From the NCBI GenBank assembly GCA_043784925.1, contig JAYVXU010000058.1, positions 1,171 to 65,170 on the forward strand: DNA of 64,000 nt, in the 5' to 3' direction. Under the pieces are notes generated by a model. That model had not been told where the DNA came from and ran no database searches. It saw only the letters and a program-made list of their open reading frames with translations. A program made the translations under genes and the position numbers. Numbering within the stretch: the first letter of the stretch is position 1; each line of letters begins with the position of its first letter. Shown piece by piece: positions 1 to 43,870 of this stretch. This DNA is from Candidatus Adlerbacteria bacterium. GTDB taxonomy: Bacteria; Patescibacteriota; Minisyncoccia; Phycocordibacterales; SBAW01.

Positions 1-492
1 AGTAACTGCTCCGATCACAAACAGAAGTGTTGGAAAAAATTGAAATATAATACTATCCATAATTACCTCGAAGGATCGCGAGATCTGCTTAATTTTGTGT
101 GTGAGAGATCCTGCAAAGTTAGAAACAAAAAAATTGTTAGAGTGTCCCAATGTATAATCAAAAGCTTTCACTTGAAGGGCTGTCATTACCCTTGCTTGCA
201 AATAATTATTTGAAAAACCTTGCATGCGTTTTGCAATCCAGTCTAGACACCACATAGAAACAACAACAAAAAGTATGGCTATGAGTGCATGAACATTTCC
301 ACTTGTTGGATTATTTGCGACCAGGATATTAATGAGCTTCCTCATATATAGAGGAGTCACAAGATTTGCCACTTGCAACAAAAGAGCCCCACTGATTGTA
401 ATAACAAGAAGTGTCGGGTATTTTTTAACTTGGTCCCAGTAAGTTTTCAGTATTACAGAAACCCTATGTTTATGTTTTTTGGGTTTTTCCAT
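1..492 (-). CDS. ABC transporter, fused permease/ATPase type; N-terminal transmembrane domain only, gene runs off window start
   Basis: Not in ORF track (no stop inside window). Own translation from ATG at 490-492 (minus): MEKPKKHKHRVSVILKTYWDQVKKYPTLLVITISGALLLQVANLVTPLYMRKLINIL...FAGSLTHKIKQISRSFEVIMDSIIFQFFPTLLFVIGAV. Layout is typical of the ABC_membrane (MsbA/ABCB-like) TM domain. Confidence 0.6.
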   Translation of the reverse strand, partial: MEKPKKHKHRVSVILKTYWDQVKKYPTLLVITISGALLLQVANLVTPLYMRKLINILVANNPTSGNVHALIAILFVVVSMWCLDWIAKRMQGFSNNYLQARVMTALQVKAFDYTLGHSNNFFVSNFAGSLTHKIKQISRSFEVIMDSIIFQFFPTLLFVIGAVT

Positions 493-735
493 AGAAATTA
501 CAATACCACAAATACTCAGCTTTGTCACAAACCCCTCTTATTAGGGTTAGAACGACTTTTGTGTTATTTTATTTTTGGAAGCGAAGTAATGCTTTCAGGG
601 AGAAAACAAAATGGATCTAACGCATCCCCAAGCCGTTATGATTGGAATTGCTGCACTGATGTTCGTGCTGGTGACACTGGGGCTTATACTCAGGAGCCCC
701 TTTATTCCACCAGATACTAACTTAGATACCTGAAG

Positions 736-2655
736 TTATTTCTGCTCCTGCGTTGGAGGAGTCTCAGCTTCAGGAGGAGTTTGAGAATCCGGCCCTGGAG
801 CATCTTGCTCTGGGGCTTTTTGCTCGCCACTAGCAGCAGTAGACTTTTGAATTGCTTCGTACATTTTTGACATCTCGCTTGAGAGCGCTTCGGTCGCGGT
901 TTTAATGTCGGCCACATTGTCTGAATTCTTTTTAGCTTCAACGTCAGAGATCTTTTCGGTAATTGAAGTGCCTAATTCGGCTGGTATTTTATCCTTGTTG
1001 TCGGTTAGAGATTTGCGAGCTGAGTATATTGTTTGCTCGGCAATGTTTCGAGCCTCGGCAATTTCAACTTTTTGTTTATCAGTTTCGGCATTTGCTTCAG
1101 CATCTTTGCGCATTTTTTCGATATCCGCGTCTGAGAGTCCTGAGGACGCTTCGATGCGGATTGACTGCTCTTTGCCGGTGGTTTTGTCTTTGGCTTTAAC
1201 CGAAAGGATGCCGTTTGCGTCGACGTCAAATGTCACTTCAACTTGTGGGAGCCCACGAGGCGCTGTTGGGATGCCGTCGAGTACGAAGTTACCCAAAAGC
1301 TTGTTGTCAGCGGCCATCGCACGCTCGCCTTGAGTGATGTGGATGTCTACCGAGGTTTGGTTGTCACTTGCAGTTGAGAATACTTGCGAACGGCTTGTAG
1401 GGATAGTTGTGTTGCGCTCAATTAGTTTTGTCGAGACGCCGCCCATTGTTTCGATGCCGAGAGAGAGCGGGATAACATCCAACAAAAGGATATCGCGCAC
1501 CTCACCACCCAAGATGCCTCCTTGGATTGCAGCCCCAATTGCCACCACTTCGTCAGGGTTGACCGACATGTTTGGTTTTTTGCCAAAGTACGCCTCTACT
1601 GCGGCCTGGAGCGCAGGCATGCGAGTTTGACCACCCACTAAAATGATTTCGTTGATATCGGCCACTTTAAAAGGAGATGCCTCCATCGCACGTTTGGTGA
1701 TGTCCATGGCACCTTTTATAAACTCGGCCGAAAGTTCTTCAAGTTTGGCACGAGTCATTTTGACAAGCAAATGGCGAGGGCCCGAAGAATCTGAGGTGAT
1801 AAAAGGAATATTAACCTCGGTGTCCATTGCAGTTGAGAGTTCTATTTTTGCCTTTTCTGCTGCCTCGTCAAGGCGTTGGCGCGCCAGCGGGTCATTACGC
1901 ACGTCAATGCCGCTTTCTTTATGAAACTCGGTTGCAAGCCAATCAATTATTTTTTGGTCGATGTCTTTGCCGCCCAAGTGAGAGTCGCCGTCGGTCGAGC
2001 GGACTTCAATCGAGCCCTCTTCGCCGCCGGCCATCACTACTTCCAAAACGGAAATGTCAAAGGTGCCGCCGCCGAAGTCGAACACGACTACTTTTTCGTC
2101 TTTCTTTTTATTAAATCCATAGGCAAGTGCCGCCGCCGTTGGCTCGTTAATGATACGTTTGACGTCGAGGCCCGCGATTTTCCCGGCATCCCGTGTTGCA
2201 GCACGCTGTGCGTCGTTAAAGTATGCGGGCACAGTGATCACCGCCTCAGTAATTGGCTCGCCCAAGCGCTTTTCCGCGTCTGCTTTGAGTTTGCCTAAAA
2301 TCATTGCCGACACCTCTTCAGGGCGATACCACTCCTCGCCCATCTTCACTTCTATGCCGCCATTTTGCGACTTTCGAATTTCAAATGGCACAACCGCCTT
2401 ATCTTTTTGCACTGCCTCTTCGTCAAACGAGTGCCCGATGAAGCGCTTTATTTGATAGACCGTGTTTTTAGGGTTGGTGACTCCTTGGCGCCTTGCAATA
2501 AGCCCGACAAGTCGTTCGTTTGTTTTAGAAGTTGCAACCACCGACGGAGTCGTGCGTGCCCCTTCTGAATTTTCCAAGATCTGCGGCTCGCCCGAGCGAA
2601 TGATCGCCATTGCTGAATTTGTAGTGCCCAAGTCGATTCCTAGTATTTTTGCCAT
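736..2655 (-). CDS. dnaK: Chaperone DnaK (Hsp70)
   Basis: Motifs GIDLGTTNS and FGGGTFD, full-length Hsp70 pattern. ATG at 2653-2655 ([10 protein letters not shown]) preferred over the upstream start in the track. Confidence 0.97.
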
Positions 2656-2744
2656 CTGATTTAGCGAAATCATGCCGCGTCGACGTCCATTGGGACGCGG
2701 CTAAATTTCAAAATTAAATAAATAATAATTACTTTGTTGAATTC

Positions 2745-3311
2745 CTACTCCTTCGTATACGTATACACAGAAACTTGAGCGGGCCGTATAAGTCTTCCTT
2801 CTACCTCTCCTGATTTTTCTATTCGATATCCCGGAGCATGGACTGATTCGATTGTATGATCCTGTTCGCGATTTTCAGTTGGGACCTCCCGCAAGGCTTC
2901 ATGGGAATGTGGACTGAATTTCTCTCCCTCCGGGTTAAAGCGGGTAATACCGATCCGCTCTAAGGATTTTATTAGATTACTATGCACTGCATCTATACCC
3001 TTTTTAAAGTTCGCATCCCCTGATTGGTAGTTCTGATCTTTAAGAACCATATCGAATGCATCAAGGGTTGGTATGAGAGCTTCCGCAAAATCTATTTTAG
3101 TACGGATCTCTCGATCTACTTCACGCTGCATTTCATCGCGTCTAAAGTTTGCTAAGTCAGCGCGTGCTCTTTGCCAGCCGTCCAGGCTTTCTTGTTTTTC
3201 CGCAACGGCTTTTTGGAGCTTTTCCCGTAATTTTTTTACCGAGGCTTCACCAGCTCCCCCTTCTTCTTCCTCGATAAACTCATCTTCAATTTGTTCATCT
3301 GAGCCATTCAT
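2745..3311 (-). CDS. grpE: Nucleotide exchange factor GrpE
   Basis: 188 aa with acidic N-terminus, coiled-coil and C-terminal beta domain pattern of GrpE. Lies directly upstream of dnaK. Confidence 0.9.
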   Translation of the reverse strand: MNGSDEQIEDEFIEEEEGGAGEASVKKLREKLQKAVAEKQESLDGWQRARADLANFRRDEMQREVDREIRTKIDFAEALIPTLDAFDMVLKDQNYQSGDANFKKGIDAVHSNLIKSLERIGITRFNPEGEKFSPHSHEALREVPTENREQDHTIESVHAPGYRIEKSGEVEGRLIRPAQVSVYTYTKE

Positions 3312-38943: not shown

Positions 38944-40160
38944 AATCTACCGACAACAACGTCAACCTTATGGATACAATCATTATCAAAATCAGCGGAG
39001 CAGAAAAATTCCAAATCAAGGGTTTTGCAAGGCCGTGGTTTCTGCCCGAACTCACGCGGCGGCGTTTTGACGAACTCTCCCCGACCGAAAAACAATCACC
39101 ACCAACGCGCCGATACTTGCGAGCTTTCCGTTTTGAGCCGCCTCCTCAAGATACCTATCTACCAAAGGTGGAGCTGTATGAGGCGCTAAATGCCGACCGA
39201 AACGAGGTACTGTACACGCTACAAGCGACATTATCGCTTCCAAAGCTCCTATACGGCAACAGTTTGCAAGAGGTATCAGAACTTGATTTTGAAAAGGTGC
39301 TCTCTGCACTCAAAAAAGCACTCTCTGGTGTCGGAATAACCCTTGAGAGCAACTCTCTTGAAAATGCTCGCGTCACAGCAGTACATTTTTGCAAAAATGT
39401 CCCTCTGCCTCCCGAGATACGGATGCAGGAGATACTCGCCGAGCTGGCTGGGGTGGATATAAGCAAAGTGGTGGACATTACTCTGAAAGAAGAAAAAAAC
39501 GGAGGACGCTGGCTCCATATCTACTCGGGCACGATAGAACGCGTATTTTACGACAAAGTCGCTGACGCAATGCGACCAAAGGTAAAGCGCAAGGACAAGG
39601 GGCGGATGGGACGCGAGCGCGGCATTATAGAGCGCCATAAGTTGCAGGACCGTGAAGTGTTTCGGTATGAGTACCGCATCAAAAAGTCGCAAACCGTGAT
39701 GCGTGAAATAAACATCGTCCTTTGCAGAGAGCCAAAAACATTTGTCGCACTCAAAGACCTCTTTGCACCCGACCTTTGCAAGGCGATATTGCTCAAGTCA
39801 TGGAGAGGTCTCATCCAACGACCTGAAAATCAGCTCGCACTTATCGGTCCAACTGACGACTTAGGACTATTGCTCCATATCATCGAGGAAGCCAAGAAAC
39901 GCGGCGGGGCGCATAGTATGAACCGCGCCCTGACCTCCTACGGGCTGGCGTGCGCCATACGCGACTATGGGGCAAAGGAGGTGCGTAGGGCGGTTTCAGG
40001 AGGATGGAACAAGGACCACGGAGAACGGCTTACCCAGAAGATACAAGCGGCAGCAGAACTGACTCGTGGCTTGCCTTATGCCAATAGTGTTGCCTTTGTA
40101 GATGCCGCTCTTGAGCGGTTTGAGTTACTCACTCCGAGATTACTGGAAGCCGCCGTATAA
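38940..40160 (+). CDS. Putative rolling-circle-type replication initiator (Rep_trans / phage gpII-like)
   Basis: 406 aa. RVFYDKVAD and FRYEYRIKK resemble the YDK / R-x-E-x-R strings of Rep_trans-type initiators (memory-based). Starts at TTG 38940 or ATG 38970. Confidence 0.4.
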   Translation: MKSTDNNVNLMDTIIIKISGAEKFQIKGFARPWFLPELTRRRFDELSPTEKQSPPTRRYLRAFRFEPPPQDTYLPKVELYEALNADRNEVLYTLQATLSLPKLLYGNSLQEVSELDFEKVLSALKKALSGVGITLESNSLENARVTAVHFCKNVPLPPEIRMQEILAELAGVDISKVVDITLKEEKNGGRWLHIYSGTIERVFYDKVADAMRPKVKRKDKGRMGRERGIIERHKLQDREVFRYEYRIKKSQTVMREINIVLCREPKTFVALKDLFAPDLCKAILLKSWRGLIQRPENQLALIGPTDDLGLLLHIIEEAKKRGGAHSMNRALTSYGLACAIRDYGAKEVRRAVSGGWNKDHGERLTQKIQAAAELTRGLPYANSVAFVDAALERFELLTPRLLEAAV

Positions 40161-41773
40161 TGACTATGGGTATGACTAAAACAGACAAAATCAAATACTT
40201 CGTCTATGTGCGAAAGTCCACCGAGGGAGAGGAGCGGCAAGCTCTTTCTATACCCGCTCAAAAGGACCAACTTATTAAAACCTTCGGACACTTGGACATT
40301 GAGTTTGTAGAGGATAAAGCAAGCGCATTCAAACCGTTCAATCGCCCCGCATTCGCTGATATGCTTGAGCGCATAATTAAAAAAGAGCGCACGGGGCTGA
40401 TTGCATGGCATCCAGACCGTCTCTCACGCAACGAGAAGGACGCTGGTGAAATAACCTATATGATACGCACTGGCGTGATAGCGGACCTCAAGCTCGCTAC
40501 CTATCAGTTTGAAAATACACCCGAGGGTATTTGGATGCTACAGATGGCACTCTCGCAGTCTCAATACGAAAGCGCAAAGAAAGGACGAGATGTTAAGCGC
40601 GGCTTGAACAAGAAAGCGGAAATGGGTGTTTACCCCGCACCTGCACCTCTTGGCTATATGAACGATAAGTACGCCGACAAAGGGTACAAGTCTATACACA
40701 CCGACCCCGAACGTTTTGACATCGTGCGGAAGATGTTTGACCTGATGCTCGCGGGCACGCACACACCGCCACGCATTTTAGATATAGCGACAAAAGAGTG
40801 GGGTTTGCGTATGCGCAATGGTAAGCCGTTGAGTAGAAGCAATGTCTACCTGCTCTTTACCCGCCCTTTCTACTACGGCGACTTTGAATACCCTGTAGGA
40901 AGCGACCAATGGCACAAGGGCATCCACAAACCGATGATTACGCGGGAGGAGTATGACCGCATCCAATTTTTGCTCGGGAGAAAGAGCAGTCCGCGTCAAA
41001 AACAGCACACGATTATGTATCGCGGTCCTATAAAGTGCGGCGGATGTGGCGCAATGATTACCGCTGAGGAGAAAGTGAAGCACCAGAAAAATGGCAATAC
41101 GCACCACTACACTTATTACCACTGTACGCGGCGCAAGGACCCGAACTGCAAAGAGCTAGCGATTGAGGAAGCGGAGCTTGAGAAACAGATTGCAAAAGAA
41201 ATCGGCTCAATAGAGATACCTGCGGACTTCACAGCTTGGGCACTGGCGCGGCTTCGCGAGATGAACGCACAAGAGGCATCCGACCGAGACCGCATCTATG
41301 GCGCACAAAGGCGCGAATACGAAACCTGTATACGTAAGATAGACAACCTCATTGATATGCGCGCTAACGGCGAACTTACCGAGGAGGAGTTCAAGGGCAG
41401 GAAGCAAACGCTTCTGTCTGAAAAAGACCGTCTCCAAGAGCTCCTCAAGGATACAGACAAGCGCGTGGAAAACTGGCTTGAGGTTGCCGAGCGTGGCTTC
41501 AATTTTGCGGAGAAAGCTGCGGCTGTTTTTGCCGAGGCGAAGGAAAACAACGACCTTGAGACGCGCAAGGAGATTTTTGCCGCGTTGGGTTCGGACCTGT
41601 TGCTAAAAGACAGAAAGTTGAGCATTGACTGGGATAATCTGCTATTCCCCATGCAAACAATGTCAAAAGAGGTCCGCTCAATTAAAGCAGGGTTAGAACC
41701 TGTAAAAAACAAAGTAAACACAAAGGATATTGGAGAAATCTACTCTCAAAATCCTATCTTGCTCCGGCGGTAG
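40160..41773 (+). CDS. Large serine recombinase (integrase)
   Basis: Resolvase catalytic domain YVRKSTEGEERQ...HPDRLSRN, recombinase domain, zinc ribbon CGGCG...YYHCTRR..C and coiled-coil. The stop TAG lies inside the tRNA-Asn T-arm. Confidence 0.9.
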   Translation: MTMGMTKTDKIKYFVYVRKSTEGEERQALSIPAQKDQLIKTFGHLDIEFVEDKASAFKPFNRPAFADMLERIIKKERTGLIAWHPDRLSRNEKDAGEITYMIRTGVIADLKLATYQFENTPEGIWMLQMALSQSQYESAKKGRDVKRGLNKKAEMGVYPAPAPLGYMNDKYADKGYKSIHTDPERFDIVRKMFDLMLAGTHTPPRILDIATKEWGLRMRNGKPLSRSNVYLLFTRPFYYGDFEYPVGSDQWHKGIHKPMITREEYDRIQFLLGRKSSPRQKQHTIMYRGPIKCGGCGAMITAEEKVKHQKNGNTHHYTYYHCTRRKDPNCKELAIEEAELEKQIAKEIGSIEIPADFTAWALARLREMNAQEASDRDRIYGAQRREYETCIRKIDNLIDMRANGELTEEEFKGRKQTLLSEKDRLQELLKDTDKRVENWLEVAERGFNFAEKAAAVFAEAKENNDLETRKEIFAALGSDLLLKDRKLSIDWDNLLFPMQTMSKEVRSIKAGLEPVKNKVNTKDIGEIYSQNPILLRR

Positions 41774-42088
41774 GACTCGAACCTACAACCAACTCCTTAC
41801 ATGTTACCCCTCATTACTGAGAGCATGGACTATATCATCATCCCAACCTAGAAAATAAGTTGTCGGATGCGAGGCGCTTCCGCTTTAATTGTTGAATTAA
41901 AGAGTACTCCCCTTCGGGATAGTCTCTACACCTTTTTTTCTCAATACTACTAGTGAGAAAAACTTGGCTCGGGATTGCCCCGCTGTTCGCGGGGTTTCCC
42001 CGAATTCACCTCGTTATTCGATCCAAATTACTTTGGAAAGCTGCGTTTATTGCCACAGGGAGCTGCTCTACCATTGAGCTACACCGGA
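41762..42088 (-). tRNA. tRNA-Asn(GUU) interrupted by a 255-nt group I intron
   Basis: 5' exon 42088-42055: TCCGGTG TA GCTC AATGGTA GAGC A GCTCC CTGT. 3' exon 41799-41762: TAA GGAGT TGGTT GTAGG TTCGAGT CCTAC CGCCGGA G. The spliced product is a 72-nt cloverleaf with anticodon loop CUGUUAA and discriminator G73. No encoded CCA. Confidence 0.85.
41800..42054 (-). ncRNA. Group I intron (IC3-like core with extra hairpins), no ORF
   Basis: Follows exon U and ends in G. Pairings by hand: P1 CUGU/GCAG, P2 CCAAA-GUAA-UUUGG, P3 CGAGGUG/CGCCUCG, P4 UCGGG/CCCGA, P5 CCCCGC/GCGGGG, P6 UUUUUCUCA/UGAGAAAAA, P7 GACUA/UAGUC, P8 CAUCC/GGAUG, P9 CUCUCA-GUAA-UGAGGG. Core strings AAUUCGGGGAAACC, CGAGCCAAG, AAGGUGUAGAGACUA and GAUAUAGUCC are present. 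Confidence 0.85.
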
Positions 42089-42173
42089 ATTTCGGCCAAA
42101 AATATTGACCAGTTAAAATTATACATGTTTATGATTCTCTCGCAAACATAACACTGGGTGTTATACTTATTAT

Positions 42174-42512
42174 ATGTTGCAGAAATTATGCAAAAAACAT
42201 GGCGAAACCAAACACTTCCCTAGAGTTGACGGTACATTCCGTTGCGGTAAATGTGCATCTGCGTGGGTTATACAGAACAGACGAAAAAAGAAAGAGCTGT
42301 TAGTAAAAGAGTTTGGGGGTAAGTGCTCACGTTGTGGATACGAAAAATACGCTGGCGCTCTGGATTTTCATCATACAAATCCAAAGAATAAAAGTTTCGC
42401 ATTAAGCGTAAAAGGACTCTCATATTCTTGGGAAAGTCTTTTACGTGAAGCTAAAAAATGTATTTTAGTATGCAAAAATTGTCATACAGAAATTGAAGCC
42501 GGTCTACAATAA
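42174..42512 (+). CDS. HNH endonuclease (free-standing, next to the intron-containing tRNA)
   Basis: 112 aa. CSRCGYE...LDFHHTNPKNKSF...LVCKNCHTEIE is the HNH beta-beta-alpha-Me pattern. Confidence 0.85.
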   Translation: MLQKLCKKHGETKHFPRVDGTFRCGKCASAWVIQNRRKKKELLVKEFGGKCSRCGYEKYAGALDFHHTNPKNKSFALSVKGLSYSWESLLREAKKCILVCKNCHTEIEAGLQ

Positions 42513-42958: not shown

Positions 42959-42997
42959 AAGATTGCCCTCTTGCCCTTCTTGCTTTATAACTTATAT

Positions 42998-43870
42998 ATG
43001 GACTACGAAGTAATTATCTACTACAAATACACCCCCATTCAAGACCCCGCCGCAGTTATGGCATGGATGCGCGCTACTTGCGAAGAGCTGCATATAAAAG
43101 GAAGGATTTTGATTGCAAAGGAAGGTATCAATGGGACCGCCGAAGGAACGAACGAAGCCATTGCTGAGTATGAAAAGCGCATGCGCGAGTTATCTCTCGG
43201 GGATTTCTCCGATATTTGGTTTAAACATAGTCCCGGAAATGGTAAAGCATTCCGGGACTTAAAAATAAAAGTACGCTCGGAAATTGTAACGCTCGGTTTA
43301 GGTGAGAAAGATGTAGACCCAACACAGTCGACCGGCACGCATATTGAGCCGCAAACACTCAAAGCATGGATAGAGTCTGGGGAAGATTTTGAGATTGTAG
43401 ACATGCGTAACGACTATGAGTTTAAAGTCGGGCATTTTAAAAACTCCATTCACCCTAAGCTCGAGAATTTTCGTGACTTACAAAAGGAACTCCCTCGCCT
43501 CGAGCCTCTAAAGCAGAAAAAAGTAGTTGCTGTGTGTACCTATGGAGTCCGCTGCGAAAAAGCATCTGCGTATTTAAAGTCAGAGGGATTTGAAGACGTG
43601 TATCAGTTAAAAGGTGGCATTGGGACTTACATGAAAACATACCCGGGTGAAGATTTTTTGGGATCACTCTACGTTTTTGATGAACGAATTTTAGAGCAAG
43701 AGTCTCCCACCTATGAAGTCGTGGGTAGATGTGAAATATGCAAAACCCCAAGTGAACATTTTGATAATTGTGCTTTTGGAGATTGCCACAAAAAGATGTT
43801 GCTGTGTGAAAATTGTCTTGAGCAAAAGTCCCCCATTTATTGCAACGAGACATGTGCGAGCATGCAGTAA
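42998..43870 (+). CDS. trhO: Rhodanese-domain protein TrhO/YceA (UPF0176; tRNA U34 hydroxylase family)
   Basis: IIYYKYTPI...IKGRILIAKEGINGTAEG N-terminal domain. Rhodanese active-site loop CTYGVRCEKAS. Cys-rich tail. Confidence 0.85.
   Translation: MDYEVIIYYKYTPIQDPAAVMAWMRATCEELHIKGRILIAKEGINGTAEGTNEAIAEYEKRMRELSLGDFSDIWFKHSPGNGKAFRDLKIKVRSEIVTLGLGEKDVDPTQSTGTHIEPQTLKAWIESGEDFEIVDMRNDYEFKVGHFKNSIHPKLENFRDLQKELPRLEPLKQKKVVAVCTYGVRCEKASAYLKSEGFEDVYQLKGGIGTYMKTYPGEDFLGSLYVFDERILEQESPTYEVVGRCEICKTPSEHFDNCAFGDCHKKMLLCENCLEQKSPIYCNETCASMQ

Follow-up and report, generated by a model that had tools for sequence, protein, structure and literature searches.

A group I intron of the Asn.4Ug class and a putative tRNA-Asn-directed HNH endonuclease gene at a tRNA-Asn locus of Candidatus Adlerbacteria

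Described systems closest to the locus

The classical group I introns of bacterial tRNA genes (class IC3), found in Azoarcus tRNA-Ile(CAU), cyanobacterial tRNA-Leu(UAA) and tRNA-fMet, and Agrobacterium tRNA-Arg(CCU), are small anticodon-loop ribozymes without an open reading frame (ORF), with a P3–P9 core, P2 and P9 hairpins capped by GNRA loops, and a short P1 formed from anticodon-loop nucleotides. We know of no member of this group that has been described with an adjacent HNH endonuclease gene. The ribozyme traits just listed are also found in an intron that interrupts the tRNA-Asn(GUU) gene of Candidatus Adlerbacteria, a member of the Candidate Phyla Radiation (CPR, Patescibacteria) and probably of class Paceibacteria, in a 64-kb stretch of contig JAYVXU010000058.1 (positions 1,171 to 65,170; hereafter the window, i.e., the whole of the 64,000 nucleotides analysed). 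This intron, which lies next to a free-standing gene for an HNH-type protein, differs from the classical ones in residing in another tRNA and in its splice position, which is 4 in Williams' numbering, compared with 2, 3 or 5. The overall best explanation of the locus, to which we assign a probability of about 0.75, is that an intron of a known class in tRNA-Asn is accompanied by an HNH protein that targets tRNA-Asn genes.

Pairs of a group I intron and a free-standing endonuclease are known from collaborative homing, namely, F-CphI and the psbA intron of a cyanophage (Zeng et al. 2009), gene 5.3 of phage T3 compared with I-TslI, which is encoded in an intron of phage PhiI (Bonocora & Shub 2009), and, in T4, the nrdB intron and mobE (Wilson & Edgell 2009, PMC2790892). 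According to Bonocora and Shub, as cited in PMC2790892, an intron and a free-standing endonuclease that converge on the same conserved site may later fuse. As in these cases, the window contains an ORF-less group I intron with an HNH-type gene within co-conversion distance, and homologues of the nuclease are found both free-standing and inside an intron of the target gene. The described cases, however, concern phage protein-coding genes and were studied by cleavage and cross-infection assays, whereas the present case concerns a cellular CPR tRNA gene approached by comparative genomics only; in addition, and unlike in those systems, relatives of the window gene also adjoin intron-less targets in other phyla and in phages. 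The homing endonucleases of phage tRNA clusters, such as T4 SegB and, putatively, the HNH proteins encoded in the tRNA arrays of phages CR3 and DAC15, are products of free-standing genes, like that of the window. SegB is a GIY-YIG enzyme. Phage proteins encoded between tRNA genes and annotated as HNH endonucleases are 40–50% identical to the window protein over their full length, but the phage tRNA-Asn genes beside them carry no intron, the exception being a metagenomic locus (L164) discussed below. The added value of the present analysis lies in comparative evidence for a tRNA-Asn-linked endonuclease family with both free-standing and intron-encoded members.

The intron in tRNA-Asn(GUU)

As predicted in the initial annotation of the window, the two halves of the tRNA gene (Table 1) form a 72-nt cloverleaf, followed by discriminator G73, once 255 nt are removed, and the spliced sequence is recognised by ARAGORN as tRNA-Asn(gtt). 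When introns are permitted, the same program identifies tRNA-Asn(gtt) in the unspliced sequence as well, with a 255-nt intron at cctgt-intron-taagg; without the intron option, it reports zero tRNAs in the entire window. The split gene excepted, ARAGORN and Rfam searches of the 64 kb detected neither a tRNA nor any further known RNA gene. The insert is preceded by U and its terminal nucleotide is G, as read directly from the sequence. The splice site lies between anticodon positions 35 and 36, and splicing would give back the CUGUUAA anticodon loop.

The covariance-model search that the initial annotation had proposed as a check revealed Intron_gpI (RF00028) as the sole Rfam family matched in the window (41807–42130, reverse strand; 84.7 bits against a gathering score of 50; E-value, 4 × 10−20), with the match extending over the full model (1–253). 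The three core strings that the initial annotation had linked to the Azoarcus and cyanobacterial IC3 introns, CGAGCCAAG, AAGGTGTAGAGACTA and GATATAGTCC, are all found in the intron. An alignment of 20 homologous introns of the same core type, all from other genomes (alignment A1), was used for RNAalifold and for pair counts. From this alignment, RNAalifold recovers P1–P6, P6a, P8 and P9 of the fold previously drawn by hand, together with a pair of hairpins between P7 and P3′, and P7 was added as a pseudoknot. Standard pairs occupy 96% of the alignment cells, compared with 34–45% when the 3′ partners are slid by 1–3 columns, and compensatory double changes are observed in 40 of the 61 base pairs; none of 500 shuffles matched the observed values. 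Compensatory changes are present in P2, P3, P4, P5, P6a, P7.1, P7.2, P8 and P9, and absent from P1, P6 and P7. The two additional hairpins noticed earlier between P7 and P3′ (P7.1 and P7.2) carry such changes in every aligned pair. Variation in P6 is one-sided, while P1 and P7 are invariant among the 20 homologues, which is neutral as evidence; both are universal group I elements. Thus, covariance model, tRNA restoration and covariation agree on an anticodon-loop group I intron at site 35/36 of tRNA-Asn(GUU).

Regarding individual elements, the 5′ splice site is marked by a U35–G wobble in P1, which is likewise invariant in 20/20 homologues, and loop L1 of the window intron reads GGCAAUAAAC. 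Loops L2 and L9 are conserved GNRA loops, like those of the Azoarcus intron. P7, the guanosine-binding helix, has a bulged A and forms a pseudoknot with P3; its strings are shared by the Azoarcus seed and by others in the seed alignment of Williams (2020, bioRxiv 10.1101/2020.01.27.920355). The window intron ends in ...AACAUG, and in 45/45 distinct introns collected the final G directly precedes TAAGG. No convincing P10 is seen in the 20-intron alignment, and the two exon–exon pairs that RNAalifold drew (columns 1–410 and 2–409) are those of the tRNA anticodon stem. The exons are probably held together by this stem rather than by P10. Other types of insert were considered and rejected: a bulge-helix-bulge intron of the archaeal/eukaryotic kind because of the wrong position and the presence of a full ribozyme core, a group II intron or insertion sequence because the insert has no such match and no ORF, and a chance match to the group I model because of the E-value of 4 × 10−20 and the covariation.

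The initial annotation implied that both the tRNA-Asn host and the 35/36 site were new. This does not hold, since a scan of ~80,000 genomes, which extended the known intron/tRNA settings from 4 to 21, lists the seed Pam37.Asn.4Ug, inserted in tRNA-Asn after the fourth anticodon-loop nucleotide, with U-1 and omega-G, and introns sharing this insertion position in three further tRNAs (Tyr.4Ug, Asp.4Ug and Lys.4Ug) (Williams 2020). The window intron agrees with Pam37.Asn.4Ug in tRNA, site, U-1 and omega-G, and in the strings GGUGAAUUC, AGAGACUA, AGCGCC and GAUAGUCC. It also has, like that seed, extra hairpin structure between P7 and P3′: a single hairpin in Pam37.Asn.4Ug, and either one or two in the other seeds that share its core type. 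The two introns nevertheless differ in sequence, and the window intron has its own details of P2, P5, P6a, P7.2 and P8. The Asn.4Ug class is known from metagenome-assembled CPR-type genomes. Among the classical introns, the Azoarcus seed Aol6.Ile2.5Ug shares the strings CGAGCCAAG and AAGGUGUAGAGACUA with the window, but neither P7.1 nor P7.2 is present in the seeds for Azoarcus, Leu, Arg and fMet. It is therefore nearly certain that the insert is a group I intron of the known class Asn.4Ug, and it is an ordinary member of this catalogued, abundant and widespread class, which combines the IC3-like core of bacterial tRNA introns with P7.1/P7.2. Literature searches for group I introns and tRNA-Asn returned organelle genome papers only, and those for CPR or Patescibacteria and tRNA introns yielded no more than a remark made in passing by Lui et al. 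2021 (PMC8172020).

In order to describe the prevalence of the intron, one genome per GTDB species was scanned for the exon-1 motif GGTAGAGCRGYTCCCTGT. The scan listed 120 rows with uneven flanks, of which ~20 are chance matches in unrelated genomes, and 4 more are split genes that fall outside the pattern or are incomplete; all counts from this sample, here and below, refer to the matches listed. Among the 95 tRNA-Asn genes sharing the motif, 39 are split at exactly CTGT/TAAGG and 56 are intact. Nearly all of them belong to Patescibacteria (Paceibacteria, Saccharibacteria, Microgenomates, Andersenbacteria and others). The ORF-less introns at this site are 179–307 nt long and fall into three core types: (a), that of the window, with P7.1/P7.2; (b), with GGCUAAUUC ... 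ACUAUAUACC; and (c), with GGGAUAWCGGU ... CGCCGUAGAGACUAGAUACC. According to the seeds of Williams (2020), types a, b and c are also found in other tRNAs (Lys/Phe, Asp and Tyr/Thr, respectively). Type (c) introns of 192–215 nt at the same tRNA-Asn site (L001:3655–3919 and L008:4277–4564) score below the Rfam gathering threshold for Intron_gpI, and homologous split genes are mislabelled by ARAGORN with introns as Thr(tgt) or His(gtg). The junctions of the homologues were consequently read by eye and by pattern, not from ARAGORN labels.

Standard tRNA finders thus miss the split tRNA-Asn, as ARAGORN does in the window, and Rfam misses the shorter cores (L001, L008), and therefore CPR genomes can seem to be devoid of tRNA-Asn. 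Annotation pipelines will miss or misname split genes of type (c), and inferences on completeness and codon usage of CPR genomes should allow for group I introns. In the passage of Lui et al. 2021 (PMC8172020) that deals with these introns, group I introns are said to conceal CPR tRNAs from tRNA finders, and complete CPR genomes have a full tRNA set only when such tRNAs are counted; the tRNAscan-SE 2.0 paper states that the program was not built for detecting introns of this kind. Because the core is intact, the RNA structure has been under selection in many species and the window contains no other tRNA, the intron is predicted to be still splicing, and the split tRNA gene is very probably functional.

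The HNH family and its link with tRNA-Asn

As already noted in the initial annotation, the HNH gene starts 86 nt from the 5′ end of the tRNA and is divergent from it, which is confirmed by the ORF listed in Table 1. That the product is HNH-like is indicated by its invariant residues, by Pfam matches in relatives, by Foldseek and by the annotations of phage homologues. The window protein itself remains below the cut-offs of both PF01844 (18.2 bits; cut-off, 21.4) and PF21368 (16.8 bits; cut-off, 23), and PF01844 is matched by 10 out of 20 family members at E ≤ 0.01 (best E-value, 2.2 × 10−6). The protein has an N-terminal zinc ribbon (C6, H9, C24, C27), followed by HNH core residues (C51, C54, D64, H66, C100, N102, C103, H104 and E106), none of which varies in the free-standing or the intronic forms; H67 shows no variation in alignment A2 and is at least 90% conserved in alignment A3. 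The resulting CxxC...D-x-H...CxNCH pattern corresponds to the D/H-H ... N/H catalytic motif framed by two CxxC zinc-binding pairs. An AlphaFold2 model of the protein (predicted local distance difference test score, 95) has Cap5, Gme HNH nickase, T4 endonuclease VII and Cas9 HNH as the best Foldseek hits in PDB, although these are weak (E-values, 0.25–1). Sequence and profile searches of PDB gave only a weak match to the zinc ribbon of ribosomal protein L31 and a marginal one to McrA (E-value, 0.085), and a search of NCBIfam gave nothing relevant. More than 200 homologues share 65–83% identity with the window protein, and are found in Nomura-, Wolfe- and Yanofskybacteria and other Patescibacteria.

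The first five independent homologue contexts that were fetched all adjoin a tRNA-Asn gene split at CTGT/TAA, while their other neighbours are wholly different; the HNH/tRNA-Asn pair is likewise kept among loci L001, L003, L005 and L008, in which the neighbouring genes have nothing in common. A survey of CPR alleles with and without the intron, as suggested in the initial annotation, was made with a hidden Markov model of the family on the genome sample described above. The HNH gene was found at 13 of the 39 intron-bearing loci and at none of the 56 intron-less ones (Fisher p = 2.3 × 10−6). When the comparison is limited to loci flanked by 700 nt or more on each side, the counts are 8/22 and 0/28 (p = 6 × 10−4), and the gene is absent from the other 14 of the 22 fully covered intron alleles. 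At 7 of the 13 loci, the gene is full-length, free-standing and, as in the window, located upstream of the tRNA in divergent orientation, and at the remaining six, a shorter form without the N-terminal zinc ribbon is located inside introns of 532–560 nt. The orientation of the gene relative to the tRNA differs in Wolfebacteria and Terrybacteria. As a side observation, LOOT RNA (RF03000; 66–73 bits) is found a few kb from the HNH/tRNA-Asn pair in loci of Yanofskybacteria and Wolfebacteria (Table 1), and none is present in the window.

The short form occupies loop L1 of 532–560-nt introns at the 35/36 site (L026, L028, L104, L122, L125, L199, L212 and L217), where the last codons of the ORF (..CHRELEAGI(T/A)QLP) coincide with the guide of the ribozyme, ..GGCATAACGCAGCTTCC. 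The window intron opens with GGCAATAAACGCAGCTTTCC, and these initial 20 nt are very similar to the 3′ ends of the intronic HNH ORFs in L122, L104 and L028 (encoding G-I-T-Q-L-P), which suggests that the start of the window intron (42041–42054), where L1 lies, may be the stump of a deleted ORF, or the entry point of one. Degenerate copies of the HNH gene were detected as well, with a stop codon in L024, a break in L121, a frameshift in L080 and only a 30-aa remnant in L110. L104 and L122 share 81% identity in the ORF part but 60% in the ribozyme part, in which their core types differ; the window (type a) and L001 (type c) encode sister HNH proteins with 82% identity. The histories of nuclease and ribozyme thus appear to be mosaic.

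A metagenome scan with the HNH alignment retrieved 545 relatives among 600 candidate stretches, 80 of which were kept. The closest ten repeat the arrangement of the window, and several of the short forms are intronic. About 73 of the 80 lie within ~170 nt of a tRNA-Asn gene, most of the exceptions being truncated contigs, and ~58 are full-length relatives (41–54% identity) located ~10–90 nt from an intact tRNA-Asn(GUU) gene. Many are found on soil contigs of high GC content (0.65–0.74), including dozens of shorter contigs on which tRNA-Asn follows the HNH gene after 30–90 nt, and three independent long ones (L172, L213 and L163; GC content, ~0.70) on which the order dnaG (primase)–HNH–intact tRNA-Asn is found, each at about 200–3000. 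Others reside in AT-rich tRNA arrays on contigs of 97–368 kb. That the HNH gene is specific to the intron is excluded by these metagenomic relatives and the phage relatives beside intact tRNA-Asn genes. On two contigs that are probably large phages (~98 and ~369 kb), the HNH gene lies between two tRNA-Asn copies differing in sequence (L198:2403–2908 and L218:2361–2926), which may reflect duplication of the target or a resistant replacement allele. In the metagenomic locus L164 (375–1039, forward strand), a tRNA array of non-CPR type (Thr, Asn, Gly, Phe, Ala) contains a tRNA-Asn gene split at 35/36 (GACTGT/TAATC) by a 591-nt group I intron, for which Rfam makes no call at the gathering score and which carries a full-length HNH gene in the P5 loop (L5). 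L164 apparently represents a second, independent entry of the family into an intron.

Among cultured phages, tblastn revealed HNH relatives in 481 records; phage relatives bear the annotation HNH endonuclease. The HNH gene follows tRNA-Asn after 19–27 nt in Cronobacter phage CR3 and Aeromonas phage LAh_6, and is surrounded or adjoined by other tRNAs in Bacteroides phage DAC15 and Yersinia phage fHe-Yen9-04. The idea of co-mobility put forward in the initial annotation receives real support from the comparison: in the CPR sample the HNH gene occurs beside intron alleles and not beside intron-less ones and, elsewhere, inside the intron. Its link, however, is to tRNA-Asn generally and not to the intron alone. 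No paper describing an HNH/tRNA-Asn link or a locus of this type was found in literature searches, including those for free-standing HNH genes and tRNA introns.

Based on these observations, the following course of events may be proposed. For splicing, C32–U35 of the anticodon loop would pair with the intron guide GCAG to form P1, with the U–G wobble; an exogenous guanosine bound in P7 would attack after U35, and omega-G (41800) would next occupy the same site, allowing the freed 3′-OH of U35 to attack before U36. The HNH protein would act as a free-standing homing endonuclease, the target of its family being the tRNA-Asn gene. The intron would interrupt the target site and thereby shield the host copy. 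An intron-less allele that suffers a double-strand break would be repaired with this locus as the template, and the nuclease gene and the intron would be copied jointly, as in collaborative, or trans, homing. The nuclease would, in other lineages, have moved into the intron itself. That the HNH protein is a tRNA-Asn-directed homing endonuclease co-moving with the intron has, in our view, slightly better than even odds, because unrelated hosts share only the tRNA-Asn neighbour, the gene is dispensable and decayed in places, two intron loops have been entered, and the histories are mosaic. For the further proposal that the family has been caught in all three stages envisaged by Bonocora and Shub, i.e., beside an intron-less target, beside an intron-protected target (the window) and inside the intron, the odds appear to be even. 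Part of that reading is that the gene lodged inside introns independently at least twice, in the short form in L1 and in full length in L5.

The main rival to homing, which we regard as unlikely, is that the HNH-like protein is a host or phage protein tied to tRNA-Asn (a helper in maturation or splicing, a regulator or a domesticated nuclease) and that adjacency reflects co-expression; the intron would still be a normal self-splicing group I intron. Such a role would suit the link to tRNA-Asn itself with or without an intron, which is evident in the relatives near intact genes, the frequent location of the HNH gene upstream of tRNA-Asn on the same strand, as if co-transcribed, the dnaG–HNH–tRNA-Asn order on the three long high-GC contigs, and the high conservation among Paceibacteria. 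Against such a role, the gene is missing from 56/56 intron-less and 26/39 intron-bearing CPR loci of the genome sample and is hence dispensable, pseudogenes and remnants have been left behind, and two different intron loops encode it, a hallmark of homing endonuclease genes. Its nuclease residues are invariant, and its hosts (CPR, high-GC soil bacteria, and crAss-like, jumbo and Certrevirus phages) are unrelated, with tRNA-Asn as the sole common neighbour, which a site-specific mobile gene accounts for better than vertical synteny. Synteny inherited within one clade, or mere coincidence, with no functional or mobility tie between HNH gene and intron, is highly improbable. It would be in line with the free-standing form being one clade in Paceibacteria, most copies of which are divergent from the tRNA at a similar distance; yet it is at odds with the Fisher test given above, with the changed orientation in Wolfebacteria and Terrybacteria, with the intron-encoded members in L1 and L5, with the wholly different flanks of L001, L003, L005 and L008, and with the combination of related HNH proteins with different ribozyme cores. 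We consider even less probable that the split gene is a decaying relic, i.e., a non-splicing tRNA pseudogene backed up by an intact tRNA-Asn elsewhere in the genome. All core helices are intact in the window and the exons form a perfect cloverleaf with G73, while dozens of species have retained this arrangement through compensatory evolution, a pattern that requires selection on RNA structure; the integrated element that abuts the 3′ end of the gene, and might speak for decay, has a recombinase ORF that overlaps the tRNA without truncating it. The statement on full tRNA sets in the cited passage of Lui et al. 2021 (PMC8172020) also argues against a relic.

Several points weigh against the preferred combination of a functional known-class intron and a tRNA-Asn-targeting nuclease. 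Only 64 kb of the genome are visible, and a second tRNA-Asn, as the relic explanation requires, may lie outside them. The genome sample covers only tRNA-Asn with a TCCCTGT stem. For the window protein, the HNH assignment draws on sub-threshold Pfam scores and on Foldseek E-values of 0.25–1, and the tree of the HNH proteins was built by neighbour joining from ~110 residues and carries no support values. Identities of 65–83% across Nomura-, Wolfe-, Yanofsky- and Adlerbacteria are unusually high for a selfish gene, and such conservation would equally suit a domesticated or host-useful protein. There is one clear exception to the CPR pattern of HNH genes only beside intron-bearing alleles: in the metagenomic locus L204 (2260–2740), a short-form HNH gene lies 166 nt downstream of a CPR-type intron-less tRNA-Asn that is near-identical to the spliced sequence of the window. 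Finally, many HNH relatives, such as those on the dnaG–HNH–tRNA-Asn contigs, adjoin intact intron-less tRNA-Asn genes, and the intron is therefore unnecessary for coexistence with the nuclease.

The HNH gene is more informative than the intron, since the settings in which it is found form a natural series on which ideas about the origin of mobile introns can be tested, and since it points to a candidate for a tRNA-gene-specific nuclease. If the three-stage reading were true, the CPR tRNA-Asn locus would represent a natural system, in a cellular tRNA gene, for the convergence of an intron and an endonuclease on one site, and the reading would explain why ~40% of the sampled CPR tRNA-Asn genes are split.

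The serine recombinase and other features of the window

The gene on the other side of the tRNA encodes a large serine recombinase with the Pfam domains Resolvase, Recombinase and Zn_ribbon_recom. The initial annotation regarded the tRNA region as the landing area of an integrative element, and this is borne out by the end of the recombinase gene within the tRNA 3′ end and by the recurrence of this arrangement at eight other loci. In total, 9 out of 83 loci with enough flank (the window included) have a recombinase C-terminus no more than 120 nt from the tRNA-Asn 3′ end on the opposite strand. Five of these are among 43 loci with the intron and four among 40 without it (the eight besides the window are L030, L033, L102, L126, L028, L031, L035 and L053). 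The tRNA-Asn 3′ end thus looks like a recurrent integration site of serine recombinases in Patescibacteria, which is independent of the intron, given the equal frequency with and without it. A search for direct repeats (att sites) in 20000–42200 revealed only short repeats at chance level, as expected for a serine recombinase. One small tRNA gene therefore draws three kinds of mobile DNA: the intron, the HNH gene and serine-recombinase elements. The coordinates of all of the features are given in Table 1.

Table 1. Features of the tRNA-Asn locus in the window, and LOOT RNAs at related loci (given as locus:positions).
Feature	Position	Strand	Description	Evidence
tRNA-Asn(GUU) exon 1	42055–42088	−	Acceptor 5′ strand, D arm, anticodon stem 5′ strand, C32-U33-G34-U35	ARAGORN
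tRNA-Asn exon 2	41762–41799	−	U36-A37-A38, anticodon stem 3′ strand, variable loop, T arm, acceptor 3′ strand, discriminator G	
Group I intron	41800–42054	−	255 nt, ORF-less, starts after U35, omega-G at 41800	Rfam, ARAGORN, covariation
P1	42041–42058	−	Exon CUGU (42058–42055) / guide GCAG (42044–42041)	4 pairs invariant in 20/20
P2 hairpin	42022–42037	−	GUAA (GNRA) loop	Compensatory changes in 6/6 pairs
P3	42013–42007 / 41876–41870	−	Span 41870–42013 encloses P4, P5, P6 and P6a	Compensatory changes in 4/7 pairs
P4	42003–41998 / 41974–41969	−		Compensatory changes in 4/6 pairs
P6a	Within 41870–42013	−		Compensatory changes in 5/5 pairs
P7	41827–41926	−	GAGACUA (41926–41920) / UAGUCC (41832–41827)	6 pairs invariant in 20/20
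P7.1	41908–41919	−	UCCC-GAAG-GGGA, directly after P7	Compensatory changes in 4/4 pairs, 100% paired
P7.2	41883–41902	−	CUUUAAUU-CAAC-AAUUAAAG, before P3′	Compensatory changes in 8/8 aligned pairs; window pairing by eye
P8 hairpin	41839–41869	−		Compensatory changes in 4/5 pairs, 100% paired
P9 hairpin	41810–41821	−	GUAA (GNRA) loop, then UAACAUG to omega-G	Compensatory changes in 4/4 pairs
HNH-type endonuclease gene	42174–42512	+	Intact 112-aa ORF, free-standing, divergent from tRNA	
Large serine recombinase gene	40160–41773	+	537 aa; last codons and stop inside tRNA 3′ end, overlap 41762–41773	
LOOT RNA (RF03000)	L005:734–854			
LOOT RNA (RF03000)	L006:721–841			
LOOT RNA (RF03000)	L007:734–854			
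LOOT RNA (RF03000)	L008:5411–5531			
LOOT RNA (RF03000)	L009:5057–5177			
LOOT RNA (RF03000)	L010:4187–4307			

The next gene downstream of the HNH gene (42971–43870, forward strand) encodes a protein with UPF0176, rhodanese and Rhodanese_C domains, which we take to be the architecture of a TrhO-like tRNA U34 hydroxylase; it is probably a mere neighbour.

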